DNA of 42,521 nucleotides from Malacoraja senta (GCA_038087875.1 CM075994.1:11844001-11886521); one strand, 5' to 3'. Positions 1 to 42,521 are shown, numbered from the stretch's first letter. Numbers and translations: made by a program. The notes: generated by a model not told the origin, from the letters alone.

Positions 1-946
1 CTCAGTTTTAACAGTATCCCAAGAAAATATCTCAAGGAAGAAAAAAACAGATGTGGAAGAATTAAGAACCTTCCTGACACAGGAAATCTCTAATATAATG
101 AAAGAATTTAAAAAATCTTAAACAGGAGCTGAAATCTTTAAAAGATGAAATTAAAGAACAAATTAAAGATGAGGTTACAGCTTCTGTGCATGAATGTACT
201 GGAAGACTGCAAATTAACCATGGAAGAAAATATGCATCAAAATACTGAAGAAGTATATGATAAACTGAATTCGATGGAATCCAGATTTGATGCTAAGTTG
301 GAGCCTATCCTCCAGACATTAAATCAACACCACGAAGCAGTAAAGGAATTGAGGAAATTGCTGAGACGAGCACCGAAACAACAAATAAACTTATTGCCGA
401 GAACAAACGCCTATCGAAGTTATTACATCAAATAACCGAAGAATGTATTGACTTGGAGGGACGACAGAGACGTCAGAATTTAAGAATCGTAGGCGTCCAG
501 GAAGGCAGAGAGGGGAATCGTGACCCTCGCGAATTTGCTGCAGATCTGCTGAAAAAAGTCTTGAAACTGGATCAAGCACCGTTAATTGCCCGAGCGCACA
601 GAGTATCAAGACATCGCCCAGGGGTGGGCGCCCCCCAAGACAACTGATAGTGAAGGTGCAATATGACCATGTTTTGGATGATATGATGAAGATAATTGTT
701 CAAAGCAGAAACCTCGGATTTGAAGGAGACAAGATAAGCATATTTAGAGATTATCCTGTGGAAGTCGCCAAGAAGAGAGCGCTGTTTACAGAAACAAGAA
801 TACTTAAGAATATAAACAATTTGAGATATGGACTGTTACATCCCGCAACATTAAGAGTGACCTATGAGCGGAAGGAACATTTCTTCGTCAAGCATACAGA
901 GGCACTTGAATTTGCCCAGAGCATCGTGGATAAGACCGAAGATTGA
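1..946 (+). pseudogene. L1 ORF1p (Transposase_22-like: coiled coil, RRM, CTD), frameshifted
   Basis: Split over ORFs 145-435, 453-647 and 650-946, with L1 ORF1 signature motifs. Confidence 0.85.
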
Positions 947-1888
947 ATAATATTCTACACCCAACATTCACCTGAAGACAGTGGAAACTGTTATCCTGCA
1001 GAGAAGAGATGGAACTTTAAACTATCATTTTTAAGAACTGTCCCCATTCTTCTTGCAGATTTTGTCCAAGATCTGCGGGAAGAATTGGGCAATTATCTCG
1101 CTACTGATACATAAAATTTACATTTTAGTACTAATTTCTAACAATTAATTCTAATCACGAATACTAATCAATACTAATTATTGTTAACTGGACCAACTTA
1201 GAATTGATTAAAAGTATGAAATATAAGTAAAGTGTGATCCAAGTAATTAATTAATAAAATATAGGAAGTTTTTTCCTTGCTATTTTGGATATTTGGATAT
1301 TTTGGACTTTGATTACTCTTTAACAATGTTTTTTGATTACTCTTTAATACTGTTTTTTGATTACTCTTTAACAGTGACTTCCCCCTTTTTTTTTTAAATT
1401 AAAAAAAAGAGAGGAAAAATATTTTTAGCTTGCTATATGATACTAACATTTTAATTGGACACTAACAAATACTTCAATTATGGAATAAAACTATTGTTTC
1501 CCTCCCCCCCATAAATTGTCTTCATTGTAATTGAAACTTTTCTTTTAAGGAAAGTACGGAGCTAGTAATAATTTTTTTTTAACAAAAGCTACAGAAGTCT
1601 TTAGATGTTTAGCCACACTAGGGTGGCTATCACTAACTGCACTAATCATAGTTGTAGTTTTCTTCTTTTTCTACTTTTTACACGTTACTAATACAACATT
1701 TTATTACCTTTTCTATCTTATGTTATAATATATTTTGTATTTGGAATGGAATTATATGTTTTATTTAGGGAGATATGTCCGGATGAAAAACAGACGAGAC
1801 TTAGAATTCATCTACCTGAGGTTCAAGTATAAGGTAGGGTTTAGTGCGCTGAGCCATCTGCTCCAACATAGACCACTTTAATCACAAG

Positions 1889-4585
1889 ATGCAAGACGTT
1901 AATATAAAAATTGGGGGTGAAGGAATTAAATTCTGTAGCTGGAATGTTAAGGGGAAAAAACAATTTACAAAATTACATCAGATAATGGAGAAACATTAAC
2001 ACTACCTAAAGATATTAATGATAGATTTTTACAATATTATCAAAAATTGTATTCATCTAAAACGACAGAACAACCAGTAGGAATGGAAACATTTCTACAG
2101 AAATGTAATCTTACAGGTCTAGATCAGAAAGAGAGAGAATCACTAGATGTAGAAATTACGGTAAAAGACATCGAGGAGTCAATTAGATCTCTAAGAAATG
2201 GAAAGGCCGCAGGTCCTGATGGTCTAAGCTCTGAATTTTATTAAAAAATTTACGATCTGATTTCTCCACGTCTACAGAGACTTTACAAACAAGCTTATAC
2301 TCAACAGAAACTTCCAGAAACTCTAAATGAATCTACAATCATACTTATACCGAAACCGGATAAGGACCCTGAAGACCCAGGTTCATATAGAGCAATAGCT
2401 CTCTTAAATACTGATCAGAAAATATTAACCAAAATCCTATCTCATAGATTGAGCTTAGTGATTAACAAATGAATACACCCCGACCAAACTGGTTTTATTC
2501 CAAAACGTTACTCATTTTATAATTTGAGAAGACTATTCAATATTATATATACAAATAGAATTCCAAATGCAGATCCAGCAATTATTTTGTTAGATGCTGA
2601 AAAGGCATTTGACCAGGTAGAATGGACATATTTATTTTCGGTAATGAAAAAATTTCAATTGGGAGAGAAGTACTGTACATGGGTTAAATTGTTATACTCA
2701 AACAGCTAGAATATTAACAAATCAAATGTTATCAGCCAAATTTAATCTTTCTAGAGGTTGTAGACAAGGATGTTCATTATCCCCACTATTATTTGCTCTT
2801 GCAATTGAACCATTAGCAGAAAGCATTAGAAACCATCCAGGAATACATAGATACAACACTAGAGATACAAGGAATACAATTTCCTTATATGCAGATGATG
2901 TATTAATACATATTACAAAGTTAGAAACTAGTATTCCAAATCTATTAAATCTAATAACACAATTTGGTCAGTTCTCAGGATATAGGATTAATTGGAATAA
3001 AAGTGAAATCATGCCAATAACAAAATTCAACTTAAATACAATACAACAATCCCCTTTTAAAATAGTTAAAGATAAACTTAAATATTTAGGAATCTATGTA
3101 ACTAAGACATATACCTCTTTATTTAAACAAAATTTTCCATCCCTTCTCAATAAATTACACAAACATATTCAGTACTGGAAAACACTTCCTATTTCAATGC
3201 TTGGTAGAATTAATGCTATAAAAATGATTTTCTTACCGCAACTACTATATATATTTAAATTAATTCCGATATATATTCCAAAAAACTTTTTCAAAAAAGT
3301 CGACTCCATTGTTACAAGCTTTATTTGGGATTATAAGAATCATAGAATAAGTAAAAAACAATTATGTAAGTCAAAGAGCAACGGAGGTTTGGCCTTGCCA
3401 AATTTCTTATTTTATTTTTGGGCAGTCCATATTAAAAACATGAATTTCTGGCTGGAAGAAATGGACCAACAACCAGAATGGTTAAGGATGGAAAAGGAAG
3501 ACTGTTTACCTTTTGAAATAGGTTCGATTATATTTGCTACCACAAAATTGCATAAAAAAACCTATAAGGAAAACCCTATAATACATAGTGGAATACGAAT
3601 TTGGAAACAATTAAAAAAGGCTTTAAAACTGAATAATATACCACTATGTCTTCCCATTGTAAATAATCCTCTATTCAAGCCATCCATATTGGATAGAGGC
3701 TTTATACAATGGAAAAATTATGGAATTAAAAGGATTGGACATCTTTATAGGGAAGGCATCTTTCTGTCATTTCAAGAGTTACAACAGAATCATGGACTAC
3801 ACTCAAATAACTTTTTCAGATATTTACAAATTAGAGATTATGTTAAATCCAATACACAAGTTTATAGGACTAGGGAACCAGAAATTCTTGATGAATGTTT
3901 GAATAAGCATCCTAACACTGAAAAATTAATAGCTTATATTTATAACTTTCTCCTAAATAACGAGGTACCACCGATGGAACTATATAGACATAAATGGGAA
4001 AATGAGTTAGGTTATCCTATTACGAAAGATATTTGGGACGAAAGTTTACAACATATACATCAATGTTCGTTAAATGCCAGACATGCTTTAATACAATTTA
4101 AAGTCTTACACAGATTACATTACTCCAAAATAAAACTAAATAGAATTTTCCCACATATCTCTCCTATATGTGATAAATGCCTGCATCTAGAGGCCAATTT
4201 AACACATACCTTTGCAAATTGTATAACAATTAAAAATTACTGGACTGATATTTTTCAAATAATTTCTGAAGTTGTTAATACCAAATTGGCTCCAGACTTA
4301 AAATTAATAATACTTGGGATATCAGAACGAAGTTTAACACTCACAACAAGCCAAAGAAACTTCCTTGACTACAGTATAATAACTGGGAAAAAATTAATAT
4401 TAAAATTCTGGAAAGGCCCTACAACCCCCACAATTAAAATGTGGATTGTGGAAATGTCGGAGACCCTACATCTAGAAAGAATTAGATTTATCTTAATGGA
4501 CAAGCAAGAACTTTTTGTTAAAATATGGGCTCCATTCATTGCCTATTTGAAGGGATATGGTGGCCCAGCGCGAAAGCCCGACTGA
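1889..4585 (+). pseudogene. L1 ORF2p (RT plus C-terminal Cys-rich domain); endonuclease deleted, stops and frameshifts
   Basis: ATG 1889 gives MQDVNIKIGGEGIKFCSWNVKG and then jumps to the post-EN linker; RT motifs in ORFs 2047-2244, 2524-2709 and 2726-4585; CDKC..H..C knuckle near 4170-4220. Confidence 0.92.
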
Positions 4586-5278
4586 AGCTTGAACTCAGGA
4601 TTAGATGTAATTATATTTCATAACCTACGAACTTATCTCCTATGACGTATTATAAGTAATTCATTCCACCTCTTTTTCTTTTTTGATATTGTAATTCTTC
4701 TTTCTCTCTATTTTTCTTTTTCTATCTATATAAAAAAAAAACACTAGAAGCAGAATTAACTGACAATTGAAAAATTTAATAATGTATGAGTGATTGATGT
4801 ATATGAAAAGTTTTTTCTTCTCCTATTATAATATGTTACTCTACATTATAATATGTTTGCTTCTAATAAAAATTTATATCACAAAAAAAAAAAGACATAT
4901 GACAGAAGAAGTGAATGTTCAGTTTGCTATTATGCAGTCATGTTGTAGCATAGTTTACAGTGAATAGGATTTGCAGTGGCATTAGCTGGATTATGTTTAT
5001 TGTATATTTTGCCCTATATGTTTCACTGTATCAGAAGATTTGTTTATTTCCATCGAAATGTATATTTCTGTAAAGGACAGTAATTTGTGTATCTTCCTTT
5101 TCCTTCATAGTTTTCACTCTTTTTCAATGACAAGAATGTGACAGCACTGAAAAGTCATTAAACTTGGGAGCGGAGATGCTAACTTCCTGACTCGCATTTC
5201 GTTATTGAATCAAGTTTGACTGGCTGTCAATTTACGTTCTACTGCTCACAAACACGTAGGGAGGACAGTTACGACGTT

Positions 5279-5376
5279 TGTTTTCTCGGGACTTGCCTGC
5301 GCATCCATCTTTTACCTCATGGATTCCAGCTCCGGTTCCAGACATCCCAGTTCAGACCCAACCCGGACTACAGGGA
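5279..5376 (+). mobile_element. Penelope-like element N-terminal fragment, left part
   Basis: CFLGTCLRIHLLPHGFQLRFQTSQF aligns with CFLGACLRLHLIPHGFQLQFPTSQF in the full Penelope ORF at ~36366-36460. Confidence 0.85.
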
Positions 5377-5679
5377 GGTTACACGGCTGTCGAGGTCACG
5401 ACCCGTGACCCGTACTGTTGCCACGCAACGCCAACTGGAGTACACGCGGTGAACTGCAGGTAAGCACTCACCATGGCTTCCAATGTAGCGAGCCCGTCCT
5501 CTGCCCCCGTATCCGTTCAATTGTCGCAATTTGCCTCAAATCTAACAACTGAGGAGTACGAACAATATGTGCAAAAAGTCTCCTTGAACGGTATTGATCC
5601 TTATTTAGTGCATGAAGCTGAGAGATCCCGTGACATCTCCCAACTGCCAGAACATAGTTCCATGGACATCATGGCCTAC

Positions 5680-5737
5680 TAAAGCGACTTTGAGTCCTGA
5701 AAAGCACTATATAAATAAAATCTATTATTATTATTAT
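5680..5737 (+). mobile_element. Short L2/SINE-type 3' tail insertion ending in (TAT)n
   Basis: AAGCGACTTTGAG...ATATAAATAAAATC(TAT)n with TAC on both sides; removing it restores DIMAY-LIST in the host ORF. Confidence 0.7.
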
Positions 5738-6410
5738 TACCTCATCTCAACGCAAATTCCATACACAGCAAAGAATTTTCAGGCCAACAAGTCATCTGAG
5801 ACTTACAATCAGTTTGCTAATGGTTGGTTACACGACACTAGTGTATACATCGCAAATAATTCTCCAGACTTACGAGTGGTGTGTGGAAAAGTAAGTTTTC
5901 TATCATTATGCTATTACTTACTTATGTTATTTATGCTATTACTTATTGGAAGCTATTTTAACACTTTTTCTTTTTCTTTTCAATTATCCTCGTACCACAG
6001 GTTCTGCACTCATAAGCTGTCGGCGTGAATTCTAAGCCATTGATGCCATGGGTTATTGGGACAAATGGCCAGATATACAGTGCCCACTGCGATTGCAAGG
6101 CAGGGCTCGGAGAAGTTTGTACCCATGTAGTGACGGTTCTCTTTGGTATTGACTGGAGTACAGATTAGTGAGAAAACAGTCACCCAGGTCAAAGCATATT
6201 GGATGGAGCCAATGAGAAAGCAGGTTAAAGCTGCGCCTGTCAGCAAAGTTAACTTCTCTCCAGCAGCACAGAAGAAAAGATGGCTTGATGCTACCATAGA
6301 TGGGACTGAGCCGAAACAGCAACAAACCAGAGATGAAGCTCCATCAATGTCACCCGCTTCTTGTCGAGCATCGGAGTTGCTGCAGGACAAAGTACTGAGT
6401 GGACTTTTGT

Positions 6411-8372
6411 TATGCACGTGCCATCAGGGTAGGCAAGATAGGCACTGCCTACCCTGACTAAAATTATAAAATGGTAATTATTAAATATAAATAGTAAAGG
6501 CACGGGAGAATTATGACTACCTAAGTAGGCATAATTCTCCCATGCCTTTCATCCGCAGTACATGTAATACGCGAAAGTATGTGCCGTCGACGCTGCTTCA
6601 ACCCTTCAATGACAAGGGGAGCTGAATCTAGCTGAAATTCTGCCTTTACACCGTGGTCTGCGCATGTGCAGCGCAAGTTTCTTGGCGGGTTTTTCAAACA
6701 TGGATCGTCCTTATCTTAAGAGTATCTTATGAAACAAAGAGAGAACGTAGTTCGTGTACAAATAATGTGGTAAGTAGATTTCTTTGAGCTTTATGTTTTT
6801 AAATACCGTATTTCCCAGCAATGAAGACGCTATTGTTTACCCAGAATATAAGGCACGACAATTTACCAGCAGGCCGAAGGTTAGGTTGTTAGCCAAGAAA
6901 GATAGACTGGGCTGTTCCTCAGTACAGCAACATCAAGAACGATGTTGGTGTACTGAGGGATATCCAAGTCTATCCCTCATTGCTGGCAGCTGATGGGAAG
7001 CGGCTGTAGAGTGGGAAGCGGTCGTAAAAGGACAGCGCCGCTGGGGGGTTGGGGGAGAGTTCCTTTCACAGCATGTGGGCAGTCTGGCCAGGAGTAAAGT
7101 TGCGGGGAGGGCAGGAGCATTGAGAAGAAGGGGGTCGCGGATCATGCCAGAAACTCACTCATTCACCGCTTCTGCAGCGTACCGGGCGCTGAGTCACCGC
7201 ATTGTGGCCGGGGAGGGAAGTAGCTCAGGTGACTGCGAGCGGACGCCGGGAACGGACTGCGGAACCGGCCGCTGCCTCAGCTCCTTCTGCGACCTGCTCA
7301 CCTCTGGCAGTGCTCTGTGTCTGAACACCTTTCTCCTGCCACTCGCTGGCCTTGCTCATGTCAGCCGCTTCCTGCAAATCCTTAAATTCCGACTGCAGTC
7401 GGGAGCAGGACATGGCCTCCCTTGCTGCGCTGGGTGACACTGCATGGTATTCACTGCCCGGTCCGTGTCTTTCAATGTAGATCGACAGTGAGGGGAACAG
7501 CTCAAGAGTGGGTCTGCGGGCGATGGATAACAGGACAGCAGGCGGTGGAGCTTACTCCTGTGTCAGCGCGAGTAACCTCAATTGGCCCTTGTTCGCGCTG
7601 ACACAGGAGTAAGCTCCACCGCCCACTGTCCTGTTATCTGCCAGAGGTGAGCGAGCCGACAGAAAGCGCAGGTGTCGGCCGGTTCCGCTGCCCGGTCCCA
7701 GCGGCCACTCGCAGCCACCCGAGCTAATTCCCTCCCCGGCCACAATGTGGGGGCTCCGCGCCGGGAGCGCCGCGCCCGGAGCGCCACGGCAGCGGTGAGT
7801 GAGTGACTGGCATGATCCTCGACCCCCTCGTTCTCAACGCTCCTGCCCGCCCCGCAACTTGGCCAGACGCCCCACACGAATGTGAAAGGAACTCTTCCCC
7901 CCAATTGGTTCCTTGAACTAGTATTGTCATTCAAAAAGTTCACAACTAATCTAACTTGTCCCGGTGTGCTCCTGCTTTTCCTGCCATCTCTCCACCTGCC
8001 ACCCTCCACCCATTCAGTGATCCACCCATTCAGTAATTCAGAACGAAGGAGATTTGGAAGCCTTGGGCAAATTGAACTGTTACTTTCTTTATTTTTATTT
8101 TTTATTTTTTTGAGCATGAGAAATTCTATGTCCTGCCAGCCTTCTTTCAAAATGTAGCAACTCAAAATGGGGGTGCCTCTTCTACGCAGGTGCGTCTTCA
8201 TTGCCGGGAAATACGGTACTTTATTAAGAGATATGGCTTTTGAAGACAAATTACTTTATAAAAGTCGACTGACAGCTGACGGAGAGGAGAACAATCTGCG
8301 CATGCGCGGTTTAAGATTTTTTTAAAGCTGACTGACTGCCTACCCTGAGTATTTACTCACGGCACGTGCCTG
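6411..8372. mobile_element. Non-autonomous DNA transposon (~550 bp of its own sequence), TIR YAKGCACGTGCCRT, 2-bp GT duplication
   Basis: TATGCACGTGCCAT at 6411 versus reverse complement of the right end CAGGCACGTGCCGT; subterminal TGCCTACCCTGA near both ends; excision restores the frame GLLSLMTTRLAILS. Confidence 0.8.
6806..8216. mobile_element. Tc1/mariner-pogo-type MITE with 25-bp TIRs and TA TSD
   Basis: TA|CCGTATTTCCCAGCAATGAAGACGC ... GCGTCTTCATTGCCGGGAAATACGG|TA (1 mismatch). Confidence 0.9.
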
Positions 8373-9803
8373 GTCCCTGATGACAACACGATTGGCCATA
8401 CTCAGCTCTGTTGACCCTTATGCGGCAAGATTTGATTCTGCTGAGACTTATAGAAATTCCACCCATTTTACAGACTTAACGGACAAAGACACATTCACCT
8501 TAACATATGCTGATCTTCTAAAGAGATGTGCAGATGTTGATTATTCTGTTACGGAAGAGGGGGCAAAGAATGTGGAGGCACACACTCGTGAGCAAGCCAA
8601 ATCAAATCTCTGGTTTCGGTATCAGGCAGGACGCATAACAGCATCAAAACTGAAAAGTGTTTGCAGGACAAATACAGGTTCTCCTGCAATTAGTGTGATC
8701 AAATTGGTGTGGTACCCTGATCTGTGCAGATTTAGCACTGAGGCAACAAGATGGGGCTGTGATTATGAACGGCAAGCAAGACAAGCTTATGAGGATTATA
8801 TGTATACTGAACATTCCGGTTTCATAATGAAAGACTCAGGACTGATCATAAACCCCAAGTATCCTCATTTGTGTGCAGATGGACTGGTTCAGTGTGCTGA
8901 GCATTGTTGCGGGGATGAGCATTTTGGTGTTTTATGAAATTAACTGTCCGTTCTGTAGTAAGAAGGACATGTCTTTAATGTCAGCTGCGGAGGGCGAACA
9001 GTTTTGTCTTCAGAATGTGAATGGTGAGCTTCATCTGTCCAATGAGCATGCTTACTACTACCAGGTCCAGGCCCAAATATTTGTCTCAGAGAGATAGTTT
9101 TTCGATTTTGTGGTTTGGACCAGTGATGGCGTTCGTCCCCATATAGAGTGTATCGTGGGTAATTTTTGGACAGATGTTGTAGCTGCTGCCACTCAGTTCT
9201 TCAATTTAGGCGTGTTACCGGAGCTTGTTGGCAAGCATTTTACAAGTCATCCCAAAATATGTCAGAGAATGTCATAGAGAACGATGACCAGGATGAACAA
9301 AAATGCTGCTATTGTCAGGAGGGGGAAAGTGGGAAAATGATCATGTGTGATAACCTAAAGTGTCTTATTTCGTGGTTTCATTTTGAATGCCTGAAATTTC
9401 CAGAAAATTATGAAACACCAAAAAATATGGTTTTGCCCAGATTGTAGGCTGCTCCCAAAATCAAAAAAGAAAACCTCCCAAAAAGAAATGAACGGCAAGT
9501 GTTGAGCTGAACATGTTTCTCTTAAATACCAAATCTAGCATTTGTATACCACGTTTGCCTTGCACTGCATCAAGCCACGTAATAGGCTATTTTACTTTGG
9601 AGTCACGTGAGTGACTACGTGAAAAACTCGTCCAGCACGCGTGCGCGCATTAGCGTTCACGCAATGCAACAGCGACGAACGGGAGTACAGGTGCTCCCGC
9701 TACAAGTTTAAAAAAGCGGACCATCAGGTAAGTACTTACTCTGAGGTCGTACTTAGGAAGCTTTGCTCTGCTTTGTGCATTCCAGGTTGAAGAAGCTGGA
9801 AAA

Positions 9804-11050
9804 ATGAGCAAAGCACGGCAAGGGAAAAAGACCGCCCCCCATTCGACTCCAACAGAACAGGAGTGTCCCATCAGTGGGGGGCGAGAGGCGGCACCTGGAC
9901 CGCACAAGCTGCGGTCCACAATCATTAAGACCGAGCCGAGCCCAGTACCGCTAGCGCAGCCTGAGCAACAGCAGCGGACTGGAGGTAAATTAAAACGAAA
10001 AACTGACCGGCCGGTGATATCAGATAACTCCGATGAGGAGGACTCTCCGCCTGAGAGCGGCAGAGGTAGCCGCCTGAGCCGCATGGAAAGGCTCATGGAG
10101 CAAATGCTCCAGCGAGACTTGCTTCGGGAGCTGGAGCAGTCTCGCCAACGGAATTCAGGCACTCCCACACCAGTGCCTTACAATGCAATGGCCATCGCTT
10201 CCCCCTCAGCCGAGGGCAGCGTTGGCGACCAGGGCTGGGCTGGTCAGGAACAGGGGTCATTGGCCGAAGATATCGGGAGTACGCATGGGGTACAGGACCA
10301 GGAAGAGCTGCTGGGTGCGGTGAATCGCTACGTGGCTACACCACGAGCAGGGCGGCCATTGCAGCCAAGACTGGTGGCCAGCATTGACTACCTGTCCCTC
10401 AAACCCCTACAAGAACAGGTAGTCAATGAGGCACTAGAACTCTACTCGCCTCCGGATAACTGCAGTTCACTCAACGTACTGGCCGTTAACAGCCAAATCT
10501 GGGGGTACGTTGGACAGAGTATCCGGAACCAGGAGCTAAAATTACAGCGTATCCTCAAGCTCCTGACGACAGGTATAACATCCTATGCTCATTCCGTGGA
10601 TGGGGTGGATATGACCACCAACCAGCAAGACACTCTGGCTCTGCTGTGCAACACTCAATATGAGATAAACAACCTCCGCAAGGAGATAATAAGACCTGCC
10701 CTCAATCCCAAATAGGCAGGACTGTGCAAAACACCGGCGTCAGAGCCACAGATCCTGTTATTTGGAAAGGACAAGTGAAAGACCTGGAGGAAGAGTCCAA
10801 AGCATTCGGCCTCATGAGGGCAGGCCCCGGAATGAGCAGACCCACACAACCCAGACGGCAGCACCCCACCGCGTCCGCCAGTCGACATCAAACTTATGGG
10901 ACTGGTGAAAGCTCGGTGTCCGCATACCATCCCCGAACCTCTTTTAGGCCAGGGCCCAGAGCGGACCCCATGGAAAATGCGCCACCCCCAACCAGCAGTA
11001 CATCCAGCAGTTCAACGATGGATGAAGAAACCAAAGAAAGGAACACTCCC
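9804..11050 (+). pseudogene. DIRS gag-like ORF1 with internal stop at 10713-10715
   Basis: 303-aa ORF with PPDNC..L.V..VN..IW and LRKEIIRPALNPK motifs; continues AGLCKT...LLFG after the stop. Confidence 0.75.
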
Positions 11051-11129
11051 ATAACTATGGAGGTAGGTGGGTCTGGTTCCTACCAGCATATAAAAAGTGG
11101 GGGAACTGTACTAACAGGGGGGGAGATTA

Positions 11130-12930: not shown

Positions 12931-13903
12931 AAAGACCACTGCTGGGCCTGGGATTGTCTGACAGGACCATCAACACGATGACAGCGTCCCACCGTATGTC
13001 CACCAGGAAACAATACCTATCGAGCATCAGGAAGTGGGAAAGATACTGCTCGAATACTGGGACAACATACTCATCTACAACCATAACCAATGTACTGGAG
13101 TTCCTGGCTGGCCTTCACCATAATGAAGGACTGAGCTACAGCGCCATCAATACTGCCAGAAGTGCTCTGTCAGCCTACTTAAAACAAGCACCAGGACAAT
13201 AGGCCATAGGGTCTCACCCGCTGGTGATCAAACTCATGAGGGGTATATTCAACTCCAACCCCCCTAGACCTAGGAACACCCAAATCTGGGATGTCAGTGT
13301 GGTCCTGACATACCTAAGGGGGTGGTCACCAGCCAGGTCTCTCACCCTGGAAGAGCTAACCCTGAAAACGGTCATGCTGATGGCACTAGTCTCAGCACAA
13401 AGAGTCCAGTCCCTCCACTTACTGCGACTGGACAACATGGTTATAACACCAGACCGGGTCTCATTCACCATTCAGGAGCTGATAAAGCAGAGCAGGCCTG
13501 GAACTTCAGGCATAGTTATGGATTTCTGGCACACCCACCTGACCCACGGTTGTGTGTCTTGACTCACATACTCACTTACATCAACACAACAAGAGATTCC
13601 CGAGGGAGAGAAAAAGCCTTATGGGTCAGCCACAAGGAACCTCATGGTCGGGTGTCGAGCCAAACCATCTCAAGATGGCTCAAGCAGGTACTGGGAGCTG
13701 CTGGAGTAGATACTGACGTATATACATCTCACTCCACCAGGGCAGCATCCACATCGGCGGCTAAAAGGATGGACGTGCCACTGGACCACATCCTGGCTGC
13801 AGCGGGGTGGTCCATGGAGAAAACGTTCCAAACGTTCTACAACAAACCGCTAGCAGAACCTGTGTTATTTGCAGAAAGAGTTTTAGAATCTGCAAATATA
13901 TAA
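12927..13903 (+). pseudogene. DIRS tyrosine recombinase, with a stop at ~13200 and a frameshift at ~13530
   Basis: SYSAINTARSALS, WDVSVVL, SAQRVQSL, HSTRAASTS, AGWS...FYNK. Confidence 0.92.
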
Positions 13904-14068
13904 TTTAAGCCCGGGGGAGCATTTTTCTTTTGTTATTGTTTAATAAATACCATTATTGTTTACAAACAGATTCATGGTTGATTACGATAATATACTTCCT
14001 CCCTTGAATGACTTCGGCAGCGAGTGAAGTATGAACTGTTACACGGTTTGAAATCACAGAGCTTTAAA

Positions 14069-14654: not shown

Positions 14655-14658
14655 GGGA

Positions 14659-21497: not shown

Positions 21498-21499
21498 TA

Positions 21500-27557: not shown

Positions 27558-27559
27558 AC

Positions 27560-30541: not shown

Positions 30542-30878
30542 CAGGATCCGGAACACCACCATATGTGCAACCCTTGGTATGGAATTAACCATTCTGGACA
30601 GAATTACAACAAAAAGACTACGTTACTTCAGCCATATCCAGCGAATGCCACCATCACGCTTTTCCAATCTAGCATTTGAGGCACTTGTCCATGGAAACCG
30701 TCCAAGAGGAAGACCACCAACGAGATGGAGTGACTGCCTGAAAGCAGACGGCATCAAAATGAACATCAACTCTCTGGTCAGAGCTAGCAGGCTAGCTAAG
30801 GACAGGAGTGGCAGGACATCATGAACCAGATGGCACCATTCAACCCGAAGTTGGAGTGAACAACATAGATAGATAGAT
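30542..30878 (+). mobile_element. RTE-clade LINE extreme 3' fragment with (TAGA)n tail
   Basis: RLRYFSHIQRM..GNRPRGRPPTRWSD; removal rejoins the host transposase as NI|DEST. Confidence 0.85.
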
Positions 30879-32995
30879 TGATGAGTCAACTTTCAACAAT
30901 GATGAAAAGATCCTGGCTGTGTTAGTGTCTTATTTTTCTCTGACACTTCATCGTGTTGCTGTACATCTTCTTGCATCAGTGTCAGTGATTCGAGCAAACA
31001 CACAATCTCTCGTCGAGAAACTTGATGAGTTAATGACACAACACAGACTACCGTGGAAAAATCTCATGTCTGTATTTATGTATTTATGGACGCAATGCGA
31101 GGATCAAAGAGTGGTTTGGAACTCCGACCCTGGAAGGAGAGAGCACCTCACCTTCTTGATATTGATGGGGACATATGTCATCATGTCCATAACGCAACTA
31201 AAAAACTGTGCAAACCTTTTGCCTTCTGGGTAGAAGGGTTGTTCGGATATGTCCACGCAGACTTCAAGTGGTCGCCTGACTTCCGTAGTGCATTGTTGAA
31301 CATTGGCCAATTGCTTGAAGTCAAGTTTACCGTGCCAGAGGGTTTCATTCCTCATCTCAGGTTGTCATGTTATGAAGTTAACATGGAGGAAATTGTGAAC
31401 ATTCAAGCAGAATGTGCAAAGAAGCTGATGACTGCTGATGGCAAGAGAAAAGACAGATGTGTGGACAAACTCTTTTACAAGCGGACAAAGACACAGTCCA
31501 TCCTGGGCTTCTACTGTGCTTCTATGCCAATGCTGAAACAGTATGTTTGTATGTTTCAAACATCAAGCCCCCAAGTTCACAAGCTGAATAACCGGCAGGT
31601 TGAACTTTTCCAGGAATTTCTTGCTTGTTTTATTAAGCCAGAATGCTGTGTGAACTTGTCAGTACAGGTCCTGAAAGACCCGTCAAGACTAAATCTGGAT
31701 GACAAGGCAATTAGACTGAAGCCAAGAGATCTATTTCTGGGGACTGTAGCATCAAAGCTCATTGGAAAGGACTCAACAACATCTGAACTACTCTCAACTT
31801 GAGGAAGCCTTTGTACATGTGTGGGAAGTACCTGCAAGCCAAGCTTCCACTTGACAACAAACTGTTGAGATGTATGTCAACGCTTGATCCTCTGGCCAGG
31901 GCAAACTGTGCTACCATGAAGTACATGCGAAGACTACCAATACTTGTCAGTAATGTTGTTACTGAAGAGGAGCAAGAGGTCTATGGCAAGGAGGTCCTTA
32001 GATGCCAAGTGAGTCACCATGTGGCCCGTGCTGTTGATGGACAAAATGTTCCAATAGCACTTGATGCGTGGTGGGCATCTGTGGCTGATTTTAAGATTTT
32101 TCTACAGCTTTGCAAAATGGCATTTGCTACGAGTTGTTTTCATGGACCACAGGTGGAAGGATCATTCAACGTGATGGGAGATGTTATAGATCCCAAGTCT
32201 TCTTGCATGAATGTCAGTACATACTCGGCAATCAGTACATACTCGGTGCCCAAGAAAAGTAAGGTAACGCGCCTCAATGACTATCGACCAGTGGCACTAA
32301 CGCCTGTGGATGAAGTGCTTTGAGAGGTTGATCATGGCGCAAATCAACTCCTACCTCGACAAAAACCTGGACCCACTGCAGTTCGTTTACTGCCACAACA
32401 GATCAACGGTGGATGCGATCTCGCTGGCCCTCCACTCCGCTCTGGACCACTTGGACAACAAAAACTCATATGTCAGGCTGTTATTCATTGATTACAGCTC
32501 GGCATTTAATACAATCATCCCCTCCAAGCTGGTTACCAAACTCGCAGAACTGGGTCTCTGCGCATCCCTCTGCAATTGGATCCTCGACTTCCTCATTTAC
32601 AGACCAGTCTGTTCGTATTGGAAATGTGTCAGACTCGATAACAATCAGCACGGGAGCACCTCAAGGCTGCGTGCTCAGCCCCCTGCTGTACTCACTCTAT
32701 ACTCATGACTGCGTAGCCGGTCATAGTGCGAACTCCATCATCATCCATCGCTGACGACACCACTGTTGTGGGACGTATCACTGATGGGGATGAGTCAGAG
32801 TATGGAAGAGAGATCGAGCGACTGTCCATATGGTGCCAGCACAATAACCTGGCCCTCAACACCAGCAAAACCAAGGAACTGATTGTGCACTTTGGAAGGA
32901 GTAGGATGGGGACCCACAGTCCAGTTTATATCAACGGGTCGATGGTTGAAAGGGTCAAGAGCTTCAAATTCCTGGGCGTGCGCATCTCTGAAGTG

Positions 32996-35945
32996 CACCG
33001 ACCTCCACGTCGATGTTGCCGCCGACCTTCACCTGCCTACCGATGACGCCCAGGCTCGCCGCTTCTACGGTAACTCGGACTTCCTTCCCCTCGCCGATTC
33101 CTCCGAACCTCGCCGCCCCCCGGGACCTCCCAGCATCGCCGCCGGACCGGGCCCACTCTACACGGCCGCCGGACCGGGGATCCACGAACTTGGCCGCCGC
33201 ACCGCACCCTATGCACCCCGTCGCCTCACCGGGCTGGTCGAACCGCACCGCCCCACCGACCATCCGCCTACCGGGACCTCCCACGCATCGCCCGCGGACC
33301 CCGACTCTACTGCCCACGGACCCCGACCATCGGGTCCGCCGACCCTCGCCACTGCAACGCCCTCCAGCCCCACCGACCCCGACTCCACTGCCCACGGACC
33401 CCGACCGTCGGGTCCGCTGACCCTCGCCACTGCACCTCCCTCCAGCAGCCCGCAGCCGTCGCCTTACCTGCAAACTGGACTCTGTACTGGGCCTGAAGCC
33501 TCCACGCTGCTCACTCCCACTCTCCTGGGTTTGACTCCACTGGGTCCTAGCGCTAGTCTGCCTAGCCCTGGTTATCTCAGTAGCCGTTCCACTGATTCTT
33601 CCCCATCCCTCTCCAACTATGGGACCACTTCTCTTCCACACCCACACCACTGCCCTCTCACCCCCCCACCCCCTGACCACCCACCACCCCCCCACCACAC
33701 ATCGCCTCGTCCCCATTCCACCCACCTGCCTTCCTCCGGCCCCAACCCCCATCCCTGCCGGGTGTTCACCATCCCCCCCGACCTCCCCCTCTCTGACATC
33801 GAACGGTCTGTCCTCAGCAGAGGTCTTACCTTTGTCCCCCTCCGTCCCCATCTCAATGAGTTCCGTGCCCTCCATGACTTGGAACGCTTCTACCGTCGCC
33901 TCCGCCTCACAGCTCACTTCCATGGGAAGGAGTCCTCGCTCCCCACTGATGACCCCTTTTCCCGTCTCCAACGCACCCCATCCTCATGGAACCCCCCTCG
34001 TAGCCTTCCGGCTTTAGAACTCTTTATTAAAAACTGCCGCCGTGACATCAACCGCCTCAACTTCTCCACTCCCCTGTCTCACTCCAATCTCTCCCCCCCT
34101 GAACGCACTGCCATCGACTCACTCTGCAACAACCTAGATTGGGTTATCAAACCCGCCGACAAGGGAGGTGCCGTGGTAGTCTGGCGCGTCGACCTCTACA
34201 AAGCTGAGGCCACGCGCCAACTCTCGGACACCTCTTCCTACTTACCCTTGGACCATGACCCCACTGACGAGCACCAGGCCACCATCTCCAGCACCATCAC
34301 CAACTTCATCCACTCCCACGCCCTGCCCGAACGAGCCTCCAACCTCATCGTTCCCCAGCCCCGCACAGCCCGCTTTTACCTTCTCCCCAAAATCCACAAA
34401 CCTGACTGTCCCGGTAGACCCACTGTCTCTGCCTGTTCTTGCCCCACCGAACTCATCTCCACCTACCTCGACTCCATACTATCCCCCTTGGTTAAATCCC
34501 TCCCCACCTATGTTCAAGACACCTCAGACACTCTCCGTCATCTCCGCGCATTCCACTCTCTAGGCCCTCACCCCCTCATCTTCACCATGGACGTCCAGTC
34601 ACTGTACACCTCCATCCCCCACCAGGATGGTCTCAAAGCCCTCCGTTTTTTCCTCGACCGTAGAAGCAATTTATACCCGGCCACTGACACCCTCCTCCGC
34701 CTAGCGGAGCTGGTACTTACACTTAATAACTTTTCATTTGACTCCTCCCATTTCCTCCAAATACAAGGCGTAGCTATGGGCACACGCATGGGCCCCAGCT
34801 ACGCCTGCCTCTTTGTCGGGTACGTAGAACAATCCTTGTTCAATGCGTACCAGGGCCCCATCCCCGACCTCTACCTCCGCTACATCGATGATTGTTTTGG
34901 TGCCACATCCTGCACCCACACACAACTGACTGACTTCATCCGCTTCACCACCAACTTCCATCCGGCACTCAAATACACCTGGACCATTTCCGACACTTCC
35001 CTACCATTCCTTGACCTCACTATCTCCATCGCAGGTGATAGACTCCTTACCGACATCCACTACAAACCTACCGACTCCCATGGCTATCTGGACTACACTT
35101 CTTCCCACCTTGCTTCCTGTAAGGACTCCATCCCACACTCCCAATTCCTCCGTCTACGCCGCATCTGCTCCCAGGATGAGGCGTTCCACACCAGGGCATC
35201 TGAAATGTCCTCATTCTTCAGGGAACGGGGGTTCCCCTCCTCCACCATAGATGAGGCTCGCACCAGGGTCTCTGCCATACCCCGCAACACTGCTCTCTCT
35301 CCCCATCACCCCACTCACAACAAAGGCAGAGTCCCCCTAGTCCTCACCTTTCACCCCACCAGCCGTCACATACAACAAGTGATCCTCCGTCAGTTTCGCC
35401 ACCTCCAACGTGACCCCACCACTCGCCACATCTTCCCATCTCCCCCTATGTCTGCCTTCCGCAAAGACCGCTCCCTCCGTAACTCCCTTGTCAATTCTTC
35501 CCTTCCCTCCCATACCACCCCCTCCCCTGGTACTTTCCCTTGCAACCGCAAGAGATGCAACACTTGTCCCTTCACTTCCCCCCTCCACTCCATTCAAGGA
35601 CCCAAGCAGTCGTTCCAGGTGCAACAGAGGTTCACCTGCATCTCCTCCAACCTCATCTATTGCATTCGCTGCTCTAGATGCCAGCTGATCTACATCGGTG
35701 AGACCAAACGGAGGCTTGGCGATCGTTTCGCCGAACACCTCCGGTCGGTCCGCAATAACCAACCTGAACTCCCGGTGGCTCAGCACTTCAACTCCCCCTC
35801 CCATTCCGTATCTGACCTCTCTGTCCTGGGTCTCCTCCATGGCCACAGCGAGCAACACCGTAAATTGGAGGAAATGCACCTCATATTCCGCTTGGGCAGT
35901 CTACATCCTGGTGGCCTGAACGTTGAATTCTCCCAATTCTGCTAG
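32996..35945 (+). CDS. Penelope RT-GIY-YIG ORF, copy 1: open but 5'-truncated, no native start
   Basis: KPADKGG, LPKIHK, DVQSLYT, GVAMG, RYIDD, FLD, YKPT, CNRKRCNTC, LIY..YIGET..RFAEH; no internal stops. Confidence 0.85.
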
Positions 35946-36061
35946 CCCTGGCTGTCCCCTCCCCTTCATCAGCCATCTGGTTGTCTCCTCCCCTCCCCCA
36001 GCCCTCGGGCTCCTCCTCCGCCTTTTCCTTTTTTCCTTTCTTCTCCCCACCCCCTATCAGT

Positions 36062-36090
36062 CTGAAGAAGGGTTTCGGCCCGAAACGTTA
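36062..36090 (+). ncRNA. Minimal hammerhead-ribozyme-like core in the Penelope tail (also 39953-39981; variant at 25965-25992)
   Basis: CTGAAGA-A-GGGT(TTCG)GCCC-GAAACGTT; minimal hammerheads are known in Penelope pLTRs; helix I looks weak here. Confidence 0.55.
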
Positions 36091-36224
36091 CCAATTTCCT
36101 TCGCTCCATAGATGCTGCTGCACCCGCTGAGTTTCTCCAGCATTTTTGTGTACCTTCGATTTTCCAGCATCTGCAGTTCCTTCTTTAACACTTTGTCTAC
36201 TCCACTGCGAAATCTCGTCAAGGT

Positions 36225-39200
36225 ATGCCTACTTTGAAGAAGTTCTCCTCCTCTCTCCGGAGACTGTTCCACACCCAACTCGCTAACTGCCTCATCTCTG
36301 TGATCCCCCCTGCCCTCCAACTCTACGACCACATCCTTACCCAAACTCGATACCACAGCCACATCTGCTTCCTCGGGGCATGCCTGCGCCTCCATCTCAT
36401 ACCTCATGGCTTCCAGCTCCAGTTCCCTACTTCCCAGTTCGGACCTCAGCCGGACTATCGGTACCGACTGGCTATCTACCGGCATACCCAACAATTCTCC
36501 ACCCGGGCACTGAGATCCACACTGACTGCGATGCGCCGGCACCAGCAGGACCTCGCATGGACCCTCCCGGAACTTCGGGCCTCACTCACCCAGACCTGCA
36601 ACGGTCCTCAACTATACTTTATCCGCCGGAAGATCCACCTCTTCAATAAAAGATTCCTGGCCCACCTCAACTCCACCAAGGACCTTAAATTAGCCCGCCT
36701 CCAGGCCGCTCCCGCCGCCGACTCTCCGCGACTCGACCGCCCGCAGGCTCCGGGCCCCAACTCCGGCCCGCATCGCCTGCCCCGGTCCCGCGACGCCATC
36801 TTGTCCACGGTGAGCGACTCCAGTACTCACCAGGACGCCATCTTGTCCACGGGGAGCGCCTCCAGTACTCACCAGGACGCCGCCTTCACCGACCTCCACG
36901 TCGATGTTGCCGCCGACCTTCACCTGCCTACCGATGACGCCCAGGCTCGCCGCTTCTACGGTAACTCGGACTTCCTTCCCCTCGCCGATTCCTCCGAACC
37001 TCGCCGCCCCCCGGGACCTCCCAGCATCGCCGCCGGACCGGGCCCACTCTACACGGCCGCCGGACCGGGGATCCACGAACTTGGCCGCCGCACCGCACCC
37101 TATGCACCCCGTCGCCTCACCGGGCTGGTCGAACCGCGCCGCCCCACCGACCATCCGCCTACCGGGACCTCCCACGCATCGCCCGCGGACCCCGACTCTA
37201 CTGCCCACGGACCCCGACCATCGGGTCCGCCGACCCTCGCCACTGCACCGCCCTCCAGCCCCACCGACCCCGACTCCACTGCCCACGGACCCTGACCGTC
37301 GGGTCCGCTGACCCTCGCCACTGCACCTCCCTCCAGCAGCCCGCAGCCGTCGCCTTACCTGCAAACTGGACTCTGTACTGGGCCTGAAGCCTCCACGCTG
37401 CTCACTCCCACTCTCCTGGGTTTGACTCCACTGGGTCCTAGCGCTAGTCTGCCTAGCCCTGGTTATCTCAGTGGCCGTTCCACTGATTCTTCCCCATCCC
37501 TCTCCAACTATGGGACCACTTCTCTTCCACACCCACACCACTGCCCTCTCACCCCCCCACCCCCTGACCACCCACCACCCCCCCACCACACATCGCCTCG
37601 TCCCCATTCCACCCACCTGCCTTCCTCCGGCCCCAACCCCCATCCCTGCCGGGTGTTCACCATCCCCCCCGACCTCCCCCTCTCTGACATCGAACGGTCT
37701 GTCCTCAGCAGAGGTCTTACCTTTGTCCCCCTCCGTCCCCATCTCAATGAGTTCCGTGCCCTCCATGACTTGGAACGCTTCTACCGTCGCCTCCGCCTCA
37801 CAGCTCACTTCCATGGGAAGGAGTCCTCGCTCCCCACTGATGACCCCTTTTCCCGTCTCCAACGCACCCCATCCTCATGGAACCCCCCTCGTAGCCTTCC
37901 GGCTTTAGAACTCTTTATTAAAAACTGCCGCCGTGACATCAACCGCCTCAACTTCTCCACTCCCCTGTCTCACTCCAATCTCTCCCCCCCTGAACGTACT
38001 GCCATCGACTCACTCCGCAACAACCTAGATTGGGTTATCAAACCCGCCGACAAGGGAGGTGCCGTGGTAGTCTGGCGCGTCGACCTCTACAAAGCTGAGG
38101 CCACGCGCCAACTCTCGGACACCTCTTCCTACTTACCCTTGGACCATGACCCCACTGACGAGCACCAGGCCACCATCTCCAGCACCATCACCAACTTCAT
38201 CCACTCCCACGCCCTGCCCGAACGAGCCTCCAACCTCATCGTTCCCCAGCCCCGCACAGCCCGCTTTTACCTTCTCCCCAAAATCCACAAACCTGACTGT
38301 CCCGGTAGACCCACTGTCTCTGCCTGTTCTTGCCCCACCGAACTCATCTCCACCTACCTCGACTCCATACTATCCCCCTTGGTTAAATCCCTCCCCACCT
38401 ATGTTCAAGACACCTCAGACACTCTCCGTCATCTCCGCGCATTCCACTCTCTAGGCCCTCACCCCCTCATCTTCACCATGGACGTCCAGTCACTGTACAC
38501 CTCCATCCCCCACCAGGATGGTCTCAAAGCCCTCCGTTTTTTCCTCGACCGTAGAAGCAATTTATACCCGGCCACTGACACCCTCCTCCGCCTAGCGGAG
38601 CTGGTACTTACACTTAATAACTTTTCATTTGACTCCTCCCATTTCCTCCAAATACAAGGCGTAGCTATGGGCACACGCATGGGCCCCAGCTACGCCTGCC
38701 TCTTTGTCGGGTACGTAGAACAATCCTTGTTCAATGCGTACCAGGGCCCCATCCCCGACCTCTACCTCCGCTACATCGATGATTGTTTTGGTGCCACATC
38801 CTGCACCCACACACAACTGACTGACTTCATCCGCTTCACCACCAACTTCCATCCGGCACTCAAATACACCTGGACCATTTCCGACACTTCCCTACCATTC
38901 CTTGACCTCACTATCTCCATCGCAGGTGATAGACTCCTTACCGACATCCACTACAAACCTACCGACTCCCATGGCTATCTGGACTACACTTCTTCCCACC
39001 CTGCTTCCTGTAAGGACTCCATCCCCCACTCCCAATTCCTCCGTCTACGCCGCATCTGCTCCCAGGATGAGGCGTTCCACACCAGGGCATCTGAAATGTC
39101 CTCATTCTTCAGGGAACGGGGGTTCCCCTCCTCCACCATAGATGAGGCTCGCACCAGGGTCTCTGCCATACCCCGCGACACTGCTCTCTCTCCCCATCCC

Positions 39201-39836
39201 CCCACTCACAACAAAGGCAGAGTCCCCCTAGTCCTCACCTTTCACCCCACCAGCCGTCACATACAACAAGTGATCCTCCGTCAGTTTCGCCACCTCCAAC
39301 GTGACCCCACCACTCGCCACATCTTCCCATCTCCCCCTATGTCTGCCTTCCGCAAAGACCGCTCCCTCCGTAACTCCCTTGTCAATTCTTCCCTTCCCTC
39401 CCATACCACCCCCTCCCCTGGTACTTTCCCTTGCAACCGCAAGAGATGCAACACTTGTCCCTTCACTTCCCCCCTCCACTCCATTCAAGGACCCAAGCAG
39501 TCGTTCCAGGTGCGACAGAGGTTCACCTGCATCTCCTCCAACCTCATCTATTGCATTCGCTGCTCTAGATGCCAGCTGATCTACATCGGTGAGACCAAGC
39601 GGAGGCTTGGCGATCGTTTCGCCGAACACCTCCGGTCGGTCCGCAATAACCAACCTGAACTCCCGGTGGCTCAGCACTTCAACTCCCCCTCCCATTCCGT
39701 ATCTGACCTCTCTGTCCTGGGTCTCCTCCATGGCCACAGCGAGCAACACCGTAAATTGGAGGAAATGCACCTCATATTCCGCTTGGGCAGTCTACATCCT
39801 GGTGGCCTGAACGTTGAATTCTCCCAATTCTGCTAG
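36225..39836 (+). pseudogene. Penelope full-length ORF, copy 2 (~1203 codons) with a single nonsense codon TGA at 37293-37295
   Basis: ORFs 36225-37295 and 37422-39836 share a frame; copy 1 has CGA at the equivalent position 33402. Confidence 0.92.
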
Positions 39837-40104
39837 CCCTGGCTGTCCCCTCCCCTTCATCAGCCATCTGGTTGTCTCCTCCCCTCCCCCAGCCCTCGGG
39901 CTCCTCCTCCGCCTTTTCCTTTTTTCCTTTCTTCTCCCCACCCCCTATCAGTCTGAAGAAGGGTTTCGGCCCGAAACGTTACCTATTTCCTTCGCTCCAT
40001 AGATGCTGCTGCACCCGCTGAGTTTCTCCAGCATTTTTGTGTACCTTCTCTGAAGATCTTTCCTGGTCCAAGAACACTGATGCTATTATTAAGAAAGCAC
40101 GTAG

Positions 40105-42521
40105 CGTGGAGCTAGTAATATTTTTTTCTAAGGCTACGGAAGTCCTTAGATGGCGAGCCACGCTAGTGTGGCTATCACTAACTACACTAATTGTAGATGT
40201 AGTTTCTTTTTTTTTCTTGCACTTTACCAATCCTTTATTTTTTTACTTTTTTTATTTTTTAATTAACTACTATCTTAAACTTGAATTGAATTATGTATTA
40301 TTTATGGAGATATGTCCGGGAGGAAGATTTATTAGATTTAAAACTCATCTGTCCTGTGTTCGGGTGGAATGTCTGGTTTACTGTGCTGAGCTATCTGCTC
40401 TTTTATAGACTTTCCCAACCATAAGATGCAAGACGTTAATAGAAAAAACGGGGGTCAAGGAATTACTTTTTGTATCTGAAACGTTAAGGGAATTAATGAA
40501 CCAATCAAGAGAGGTAAAGTATTAGCACACTTGAAGTCACTCAATGCAGATATAAAATTTCTTCAGGAAACTCACCTTAAAAACGAAGCACAACATAGAC
40601 TGAAAGCAAAATGGATTGCTGAAAAGTATCATTCCTCATTCTCCCATAAGGCCAGAGGGGTCACAATTTTAATTCGTAAAGGTATACCTTTTAAACACAT
40701 ATCAACTATTGCGGACATTAATGGTAGATATATTATACTAGTGGGTGAATTATATCTAAAAAAAGTGATTCTTCTCAATGTTTATGGACCAAATTTTGAC
40801 AACCCTTTGTTTTTTAAGAATACACTTAATACTATCCCAGAACTCACATAACATAATTTGATAATTGGTGGAGATTTAAATTGTACACTAGATTCTTATC
40901 TAGTTAGATCATCAAGACAAAGAAAACTAAGATCCAATACAAGTGAATTATTAAATTCATACATTAATACTACTAATATTAATGTTTGGAGAACTGAAAA
41001 TCCATCCGGAAGGGAATATTCATTCTACTCACCGGTACATAAAACCTATTCAAGCATAGACTACTTTTTAGTAGATTCTAAACTTATCCCGTTTATTTAT
41101 AATTCGAAATATCATAATATTATAATTTCGGACCATGCTCCTTTAACATTTATGATCAAACTAAGTGGAATGACTGACTAAGTGGAATGACTGAGAAGCA
41201 GACACAATGGAGACTTAATCCTCAAATTTTAAATGATAAAGCATGTTACGAATATCTTATCACACAGATAAATATGTTTTTCGAGACCAATGACTGCCCT
41301 GAAATATCCGCCTCCCTCCTTTGGGAAACATTTAAAGCATTTATACGAGGAGCGTTAATCTCCGCGCAAGCCTTTCGTAATAAAGAGAATCGCGCCAAAC
41401 AAGATATTGGAAATGGAAATAAGACAGAAATTAGATATGGAAAATGTAATCGCGCCTCTACGATAATACATAATAAAATTGCTGCTCTCAAATATAAGTA
41501 AACCAAATATATTCAGATCAAATCATAAAACTTTATCAAAATACTAAACAACTACACTTTTGAGTTCAGTGATAAACCACAAAACTACTGGCCGTCAACT
41601 CCGGAAACAGGAAGGGAAAAAACAATTTATAAAACCAGATCAGACACGGAGAAATACTAACATTACCCAAGGATACTAATGATAGATTTTCTCAATACTA
41701 TCACACTTTACTCAACCAAACGACTGGGTGTTCTGCAGGAATGGAATAATTTTTACAGAAATGTAATCCTACAGGTTTAGATCTGAAAGAGAGGGAATTA
41801 TTGGGGACTGAAATATCAGTAAAAGATATTGAAGAATCTATTAGTTCTTTGAAAAACGGATATGCCGCTGGCCCTGATGGTTTAAATAGTGAATTTTATA
41901 AAAAAATGTCATGATCTGCTCTCCCCACGCTCACAGACATTATATACTCATGCCTTCACGCAACAGAAACTACCAGAAACCTTAAATGAATCAACAATAA
42001 TACTTATACCCAAAACGGATAAGTACCCTGAAGACCCAGGTTCATAGCGAGCAATTGCTCTCTTAAACACTGATCCGAAAATATTAACCAAAATTTTAGC
42101 CCATAGATTAAGTTTAGTGATCCATAAATTAATACACCCCGATCAAACAGGCTTTATTCCAAAACGCTATTCATATTATAATCTGAGACGATTATTTAAC
42201 ATTATATACTCAATGGAATAGCTAATGTAGATCTAGCAGTCATCTCGCTAGATGCTGAGAAAGCATTCGATCAAGTGGAATGGCCCTATTTATTTTCGGT
42301 GATAAAAAAATTTCAACTTGGTGAGAAGTTTTGCACATGGGTTAAGCTTTTATATACTAACCCAACAGCTAGAATAATGACAAATCAAATGTTATCAACA
42401 AAATTTGATTTATCTAAAGGTTGCAGACAAGGATGCCCGTTATCCCCGTTATTATTCGCCCTTGCTATCGAACCATTAGCAGAAAGTATTAGAGCACATC
42501 CAGAAATATATGGGTATAATA
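40105..42521 (+). mobile_element. Second L1 of a related subfamily: spacer plus ORF2 (EN and start of RT) from ATG 40426, decayed, runs off the window
   Basis: NVKG, FLQETH, NVYGPN, IGGDLN, IDYFL, SDH (APE endonuclease); [19 protein letters not shown]; spacer homologous to 1558-1890. Confidence 0.93.

Follow-up and report, generated by a model that had tools for sequence, protein, structure and literature searches.

A multi-copy, one-way transposable-element domain in the cartilaginous fish Malacoraja senta that resembles a unistrand piRNA cluster in layout

The co-oriented domain at the end of contig C18

Here we report that a 42,521-nucleotide stretch of Malacoraja senta DNA (the window; C18:11,844,001-11,886,521), which forms the right end of an 11.9-Mb contig with no C18 sequence further downstream, makes up about one third of a 140-kb domain in which transposable elements (TEs) of many classes lie almost exclusively on one strand, and that this domain has about 24 copies. 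Both facts were missed by an earlier note on this DNA, which had described a near-total co-orientation of unrelated TEs in the window; that co-orientation holds and extends further than was claimed. Observed directly are the strand bias, with its sharp left edge and its breadth of TE classes, as well as the amplification and the persistence of the bias among later insertions; the multi-copy one-way domain, with its bias kept after duplication, is real, strong and larger than reported. Its layout resembles that of a unistrand cluster of PIWI-interacting RNAs (piRNAs), with a transcript, a transcript strand and piRNAs that are putative.

Reading frames, Pfam, tblastn and direct reading of the sequence identify nested TEs over nearly the entire window (Table 1), with Pfam support for reverse transcriptase (RT), endonuclease, GIY-YIG, integrase, protease, YqaJ and THAP domains; the tested open reading frame (ORF) pieces of the hAT, RTE and CR1 elements gave no Pfam match, and the Rfam and tRNA scans were empty. 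We located 14 events on the plus strand (two L1, three Penelope, DIRS, two hAT-like, CR1, an ATTCA-tail element, Vingi-like, Gypsy, RTE-like and Rex-like) versus two short non-coding events on the minus strand, a Helitron-like piece and a short interspersed nuclear element (SINE), for a hand-computed two-sided p of 0.004. The earlier note had counted fifteen plus-strand insertions at a binomial p of about 0.002; the L2-type tail on its list was not located, both of its small minus-strand insertions were found, and the bias holds. The automated pipeline, which over-splits elements, gave 18+/2- in the window (p = 0.0004). The strand tally excludes miniature inverted-repeat transposable elements (MITEs) and the ISL2EU element, which is bidirectional as the note had said. 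Strands were called from reading frames, except for the SINE, the Helitron and the ATTCA element, where presumed termini or a tail were used, and the clade names CR1, Vingi, RTE, Rex and hAT are presumed assignments, made without a TE library from family-typical motifs and the labels of the earlier note.

A single window at such a p value could be a chance find in a large scan; the two adjoining 40-kb tiles upstream, at 19+/2- and 19+/0- with the same pipeline, count against chance. The co-oriented domain runs for about 140 kb, from window coordinate -98,000 to -100,000 (C18 ~11.745 Mb) to the contig end, with 60+/5- hit clusters (over-split) between shared anchors. Beyond about -100 kb the strands on C18 are mixed (32+/30- over 100 kb), as they are left of the shared anchor in the copies (30/29, 13/14, 20/15, 17/14, 18/16 and 8/4), and the left edge is sharp to within a few kb in the five copies that have sequence on either side. 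For controls, 12 windows of 40 kb (five on C18, five chromosome ends and two upstream) were passed through the one pipeline used for all windows, with a query set of separate ORF pieces from the window and the upstream region; drawing this library from the domain itself inflates the family diversity there, not the strand calls. All 11 control windows with hits were mixed, with a majority fraction of 0.50-0.63 and a smallest p of 0.18, and the strand bias of the domain lies above this background, in which 11 windows are too few for a genome-wide rank. Adjacent elements share a strand in at most half of the pairs in 10 of the 11 controls, and a 40-kb tile of the domain holds 0-3 short SINE and Penelope pieces, versus 1-30 for a control window. 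The twelfth window, at the C14 end, was left out because it had no hits; the last 40 kb there (L075-L078) start with a simple trinucleotide-type repeat. A telomere-end effect was rejected, since the four other chromosome ends with hits are mixed, and a telomeric retrotransposon array does not fit either, with 14-17 family labels per copy and no run of TTAGGG in either the window or the loci examined.

The upstream part of the domain adds, again on the plus strand, L1, CR1, Rex, Penelope, DIRS, a long interspersed nuclear element (LINE) bearing RNase H, L2-like pieces, Gypsy, BEL/Pao, Tc1 and other pieces of the long terminal repeat (LTR) type, and other copies contribute P elements, a PIF1 Helitron and another hAT. 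Mechanistically unrelated classes, namely LINEs, Penelope, DIRS, Gypsy, BEL, Tc1, P, hAT and PIF1 Helitron, are found on one strand. The sole long minus-strand element in the C18 domain is a 4.6-kb Gypsy (L020:8223-10000, L021:1-1100), which carries a tandem repeat of ~590 bp in its integrase region.

Table 1. Features of the window and of the flanking receptor gene array
Feature	Position	Strand	Basis or remark
Right-hand 42.5 kb of the ~140-kb co-oriented TE domain; one of ~24 paralogous copies	1..42521	+	
L1-type LINE, ORF1 and ORF2 broken, A-rich tail	1..4890	+	RVT_1 2.9e-18 at 2648-4582; sequence
Penelope ORF1 fragment, left half, split by ISL2EU	5276..5374	+	tblastn; continuous in related copy in L014
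ISL2EU-like DNA transposon with nested MITEs and DIRS	5375..15714	.	Pfam: YqaJ on +, THAP and HTH_Tnp_4 on -; ends inferred from split Penelope
MITE-like insert, 30-nt terminal inverted repeats	6801..8221	.	
DIRS: gag, RT, RNase H, tyrosine recombinase, inverted ends	9587..14405	+	Site without DIRS in C5414, C2794
Penelope ORF1 fragment, right half (one element with 5276-5374)	15715..15932	+	
hAT-like DNA transposon 1, 13-nt inverted ends	15932..21324	+	Family label tentative; no Pfam match
Helitron-like piece, non-coding, nested in hAT1	16600..17187	-	Strand from presumed TC...CTAG termini
SINE	21326..21500	-	57 related matches in 700 kb of control loci
CR1 3' part	21520..22940	+	
Short retroposon, AATAAA and (ATTCA)n tail, nested in CR1	22140..22690	+	Sequence
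Penelope 3' part, split by Vingi	23141..26060	+	
Vingi-like LINE	23386..25548	+	RVT_1 8.1e-17
Gypsy-type LTR retrotransposon fragment (protease, RT), frameshifted, truncated	27360..29770	+	Pfam
hAT-like DNA transposon 2 fragment	29770..32230	+	Label tentative; no Pfam match
RTE-like 3' fragment nested in hAT2	30540..30870	+	Label tentative
Rex/Babar-like LINE fragment split by Penelope tandem	32230..40100	+	RVT_1 2.4e-9; paralogues have joined empty site
Young tandem Penelope, RT and GIY-YIG, two copies 99.6% alike	32994..40046	+	Site empty in 14/14 other copies examined
Second L1, cut by contig end	40100..42521	+	Pfam; shared sequence extends beyond 42521 in four other copies
Receptor gene array pieces	L006:117-983; L007:9226-9897; L009:7031-7993; L011:8639-9583		937 candidates genome-wide

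Between the split Penelope and the Gypsy fragment, window positions 26060-27350 hold ~1.3 kb that is common to copies and has no TE or Pfam label; parts of it match a repeat in L036/L037 on the opposite strand. Independent insertions of the ISL2EU/Harbinger type (window 5375-15714; L155:5547-6143; L133 and L153) have their DDE or THAP part on the minus strand, opposite to all other classes.

Copies of the domain and the insertions that distinguish them

The whole nest is a segmental duplicon, with colinear paralogues of more than 90% identity over more than 10 kb that share junctions. A left-edge probe marked 24 places on 22 contigs (24/24 candidates scored), and junction probes gave 11 full-length matches at 98-100%, 20 places at 93-100% and 18 long matches out of 19. 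C18 looks like a small chromosome and the other copy-bearing contigs look like unplaced pieces; sampled contigs C1-C22 range from 396 down to 7 Mb, and C27 and later sampled ones are below 1 Mb. Two contigs carry two copies each, head to head on C4046 (174.8k and 308.3k) and converging on C2694 (54.2k and 210.6k), and these inverted pairs have a palindrome-like amplicon structure. Three of the 23 copies other than that of C18 were fetched nearly whole, together with parts of about a dozen more. C18 aligns with C2424 over 97 kb at 97.6%, and with C5414 and C2794 over only ~42-50 of 140 kb at 94.6%, so that most of the biased material is not common to C18 and the latter two. Hit clusters between the shared anchors (over-split) are nevertheless 72+/6- in C5414, 61+/4- in C2794 and 71+/6- in C2424, and 94-99% of annotated bases lie on the plus strand in these three copies and in C18. 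Over their right ends several copies reach 99.3-99.9% identity and could be alleles; among about seven lineages the divergence is 1-5%, and insertions of tens of kb with target duplications set them further apart. On the right, ten copies depart from the shared sequence at or before window 42199 and are mixed from there, and the last L1 is kept by C750, C5414, C5419, C2794 and the second C4046 copy. Contigs of sequencing run X1, which may be DNA, bridge the SINE-CR1, CR1-Penelope and Penelope-Vingi junctions at ~92-94% and were not counted as evidence; runs X2 and X3 look like DNA.

Insertions of at least 700 bp that differ between copies were hand-curated from indel tables and number 31, at 25+/6- (p 0.0009), a few of which could be deletions in the other copy. 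Dropped before this count were gaps without TE hits, apparent internal deletions of a shared element, a CR1-in-CR1 gap, a Helitron that could not be polarised, ISL2EU, and the majority of elements within large gaps that are open in both copies. The bias therefore continued to act after duplication. Events of the same kind left of the edge stand at 2+/3- (Fisher p 0.09 versus in-domain). The core common to both clades is 21+/0-, its only minus-strand pieces being 54 and 175 bp long. Old core versus young insertions (p 0.07) is a hint only, as is the comparison of copies lacking the right end (6+/4-) with the others (19+/2-; p 0.07). An L1 private to C18 (L017:2174-5986) retains an open 1271-aa ORF2 and a 15-bp target duplication.

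Flanking genes and candidate regulatory sequence

Left of the edge lies an array of two-exon G-protein-coupled receptor (GPCR) genes of the rhodopsin family, whose candidate first exons are ~2-4 kb from the second exons and which was co-amplified with the domain in several copies. The domain as an intron of these genes was rejected because their first exons are local. A fourth first-exon-like piece stands at about -125.6 kb, and its second exon was not located. In kind, both the receptor family and the repeats resemble those of cartilaginous fishes. Among the 215 ORFs scanned, those in the domain contain no non-TE Pfam domain save one 7TM_GPCR_Str match that fails its cut-off (E 0.0077) and lies antisense to an ISL2EU ORF, and no host coding exon was found there by the ORF and Pfam scan, which small or non-coding exons would escape. 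The domain is accordingly a large, gene-poor, TE-dense nest. The right flanks of 14 copies, covered for up to ~20 kb (~120 kb in C2862), showed no upstream read-through host gene, and C18 itself ends.

A CpG island at ~117.9 kb of C2862 was considered as a promoter and found not to be diagnostic, as it belongs to another high-copy family with 532 candidates. Along with YY1-like and CCAAT motifs, a CpG island on the minus strand at L094:6810-6980 contains a short exon with an ATG and a GT donor, and 39 of the 40 members of its family among the matches listed are on unplaced contigs. A high-copy Helitron with a 70-bp satellite, a promoter-like module and a PIF1 helicase (L112:935-6890; L107:6430-10000) lies at the right edge of three copies. 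Elsewhere in the genome, C1 76.33-76.58 Mb (L123-L126) holds at least seven long open frames of the actin family, arranged in tandem on a single strand, and Piwi-domain exons, of Ago or Piwi type, were seen at two loci.

Readings of the strand bias

The reading that we favour, with slightly more confidence than doubt, is that selection retained insertions lying antisense to a single long minus-strand transcript, which would likely be a unistrand piRNA precursor. Insertions would arrive on both strands; those antisense to the transcript would be retained, since they add silencing sequence and leave the transcript intact, and sense insertions, which bring poly(A) and splice signals, would slowly be lost. 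The putative germline transcript would be one long minus-strand RNA reaching from beyond the contig end to about -98 kb and giving antisense piRNAs; it would start from a promoter located past the right-hand end of C18. Segmental duplication would have multiplied the trap, after which each copy would have built its own TE catalogue. Antisense orientation, and hence the minus strand of the transcript, is taken by analogy from flies and mammals, where antisense-TE-dense unistrand clusters are known (PMC10643416, PMC10495008, PMC11615739). Because unrelated integration chemistries are unlikely to share a strand preference, and because long minus-strand insertions are found only among the young ones, selective retention relative to a long transcript is favoured; young minus-strand insertions without a counterpart in the old core are what slow purging would predict. 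The trap or unistrand cluster proposed in the earlier note, with its putative minus-strand transcript and putative 24-32 nt 1U RNAs, came through every sequence test that we ran (regional extent, sharp left edge, many classes, unbiased controls, later insertions and the search for host exons); it differs from flamenco, where the bias is reported as that of Gypsy alone (PMC10643416).

Several observations weigh against this explanation. Neither the right ends nor the left edge yielded a promoter present in every copy; the right end is missing from ten copies, and conservation of the left-edge block does not exceed that of adjacent blocks. A module with what we take to be YY1, CRE and ETS-like motifs (at the right edge of C5414, C5419 and C750) was rejected as a promoter, as it lies inside a Helitron with 1185 candidates and is not diagnostic. 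Six of the 31 young insertions are on the minus strand, among them a 5.8-kb L1 with a 16-bp target duplication and a 4.6-kb Gypsy. CR1, L1, DIRS and Penelope each inserted more than once, contrary to what a strict one-hit trap predicts. Finally, polarised substitutions on the plus strand show more A>G than T>C (114 versus 73, p 0.01; 119 versus 74, p 0.006, with one mis-aligned copy still included), in one of six substitution classes compared. In mammals an A>G excess marks the coding strand, which here would be the plus strand. The excess is 54 versus 43 (p 0.42) without clustered changes and is absent from unpolarised counts (229 versus 234).

The main rival, which we hold to be unlikely, supposes that the domain belongs to a multi-copy minus-strand gene or long non-coding RNA, as a giant intron or read-through unit, and that sense insertions were purged only as truncating, with no piRNAs made; the earlier note had named a large minus-strand intron as its alternative and asked whether the window lies inside a gene. 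The antisense bias of intronic LINE and LTR elements has been ascribed to such selection against sense insertions in a transcribed unit (PMC3088655), a pattern of the same kind that also counts against a piRNA-based explanation. The polyadenylation signal AATAAA is rarer on the minus than on the plus strand in three of four domain sets (62 versus 96, 81 versus 114 and 88 versus 151), with 36 on minus versus 27 on plus in the fourth, the window, and 139 versus 146 in controls, a deficit that follows from TE orientation; small or non-coding exons, moreover, would be missed by an ORF scan. Against an intron stand the lack of any exon or host domain in that scan, the short first introns of the nearest minus-strand genes, the mixed 20 kb between those genes and the edge with its young long minus-strand insertions, and the fact that DNA transposons show the same bias. 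The scarcity of short SINE and Penelope pieces in the domain tiles suggests newer, larger inserts rather than an old intron, and the bias reported for introns is less strong: near exons, 30% of full-length mouse LTR elements are sense (PMC3088655).

An insertion bias or local mechanics without a silencing function, such as plus-strand transcription, a fixed replication-fork direction or the loss of inverted copies, appears improbable. It would accommodate the weak A>G excess on the plus strand and the many insertions nested in co-oriented hosts, and the orientation of human L1 insertions is linked to the replication fork. The bias, however, spans endonuclease, tyrosine-recombinase, DDE and rolling-circle elements, nested regions elsewhere are unbiased, including the four chromosome ends and the pairs of neighbours in controls, and neither the sharp edge in five copies nor the restriction of long minus-strand elements to young insertions, with none in the old core, is in its favour. 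Still less probable is a chance or formerly selected nest that was passively amplified in heterochromatin, with an inherited bias and nothing acting now: the many copies on unplaced contigs, with their inverted arrangements and mosaic relationships, would suit it, and the 6+/4- count suggests that some copies lacking the right end may be decaying, but the overall bias of copy-variable insertions does not fit, and the bias of clade-specific material (~100 kb in each clade) matches that of the shared core. That the copies are assembly redundancy (haplotigs), with only a single-locus bias being real, is hardly credible; near-identical right ends and the placement of all copies except that of C18 on unplaced contigs speak for it, and the divergence of about seven lineages, together with two copies per contig on C4046 and C2694 when a diploid has two alleles per locus, speaks against it.

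Among known systems, flamenco and flam-like loci are likewise large gene-free TE nests in which one strand strongly predominates, with 71-79% antisense in three species versus 94-99% by length here (PMC10643416, PMC10495008). In D. simulans, duplicated flamenco copies have non-syntenic TE content, and the duplicate retains its bias, as the copies here do (PMC10643416, PMC10495008). Unlike here, where LINEs, Penelope, DIRS, LTR elements and DNA transposons are all biased and the one long minus-strand element in C18 is itself a Gypsy, the bias there is described as coming from Gypsy/ERV alone (PMC10643416); two copies exist there versus ~24 here, and transcript, promoter and piRNAs, putative here, have been shown there. 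Mammalian pre-pachytene piC-DoG clusters are also vertebrate and unistrand; they range from tens of kb to more than 100 kb, are dense in antisense TE fragments, and purifying selection has been proposed for them. They arise, however, by read-through of a known upstream gene, for which no counterpart was found at the right edge here, and the available part of that account describes no amplification (PMC11615739). piRNA clusters occur in the axolotl, where most are unistrand, and in cichlids, and piRNA pathway genes are reported in the elephant shark (PMC7618676, PMC11753138); in contrast to the present domain, the median axolotl cluster is ~10 kb (PMC7618676), and those of cichlids, which tend to be dual-strand, show a depletion of LINEs and DNA transposons (PMC11753138). 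The literature listings searched, with few subscription papers, showed neither a piRNA-cluster map for a shark, ray or chimaera nor a multi-copy, all-class unistrand family.

In its fullest form, which we put forward tentatively and with more doubt than confidence, a flamenco-like master locus may have multiplied in a cartilaginous fish to form a family of some two dozen unistrand piRNA clusters of 140 kb, each of which traps all TE classes antisense and has its own catalogue, and copies without the promoter end may have begun to accept sense insertions. Since the domain has ~24 copies, the uniquely mapping piRNAs that the earlier note had called for would have to be assigned through copy-specific junctions and variants. 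Whether the antisense content of piRNA clusters arises by selection or by insertion bias is an open question (PMC10495008), and the paralogues, filled independently after duplication, make the bias measurable in young versus old insertions, inside versus outside the edge and in intact versus truncated copies within one genome. If the proposed history is true, the copies without the promoter end would be a natural experiment on the trap model in a vertebrate. Confirmation would make the domain a large vertebrate master locus that is directed against every TE class and is recognisable from DNA alone.

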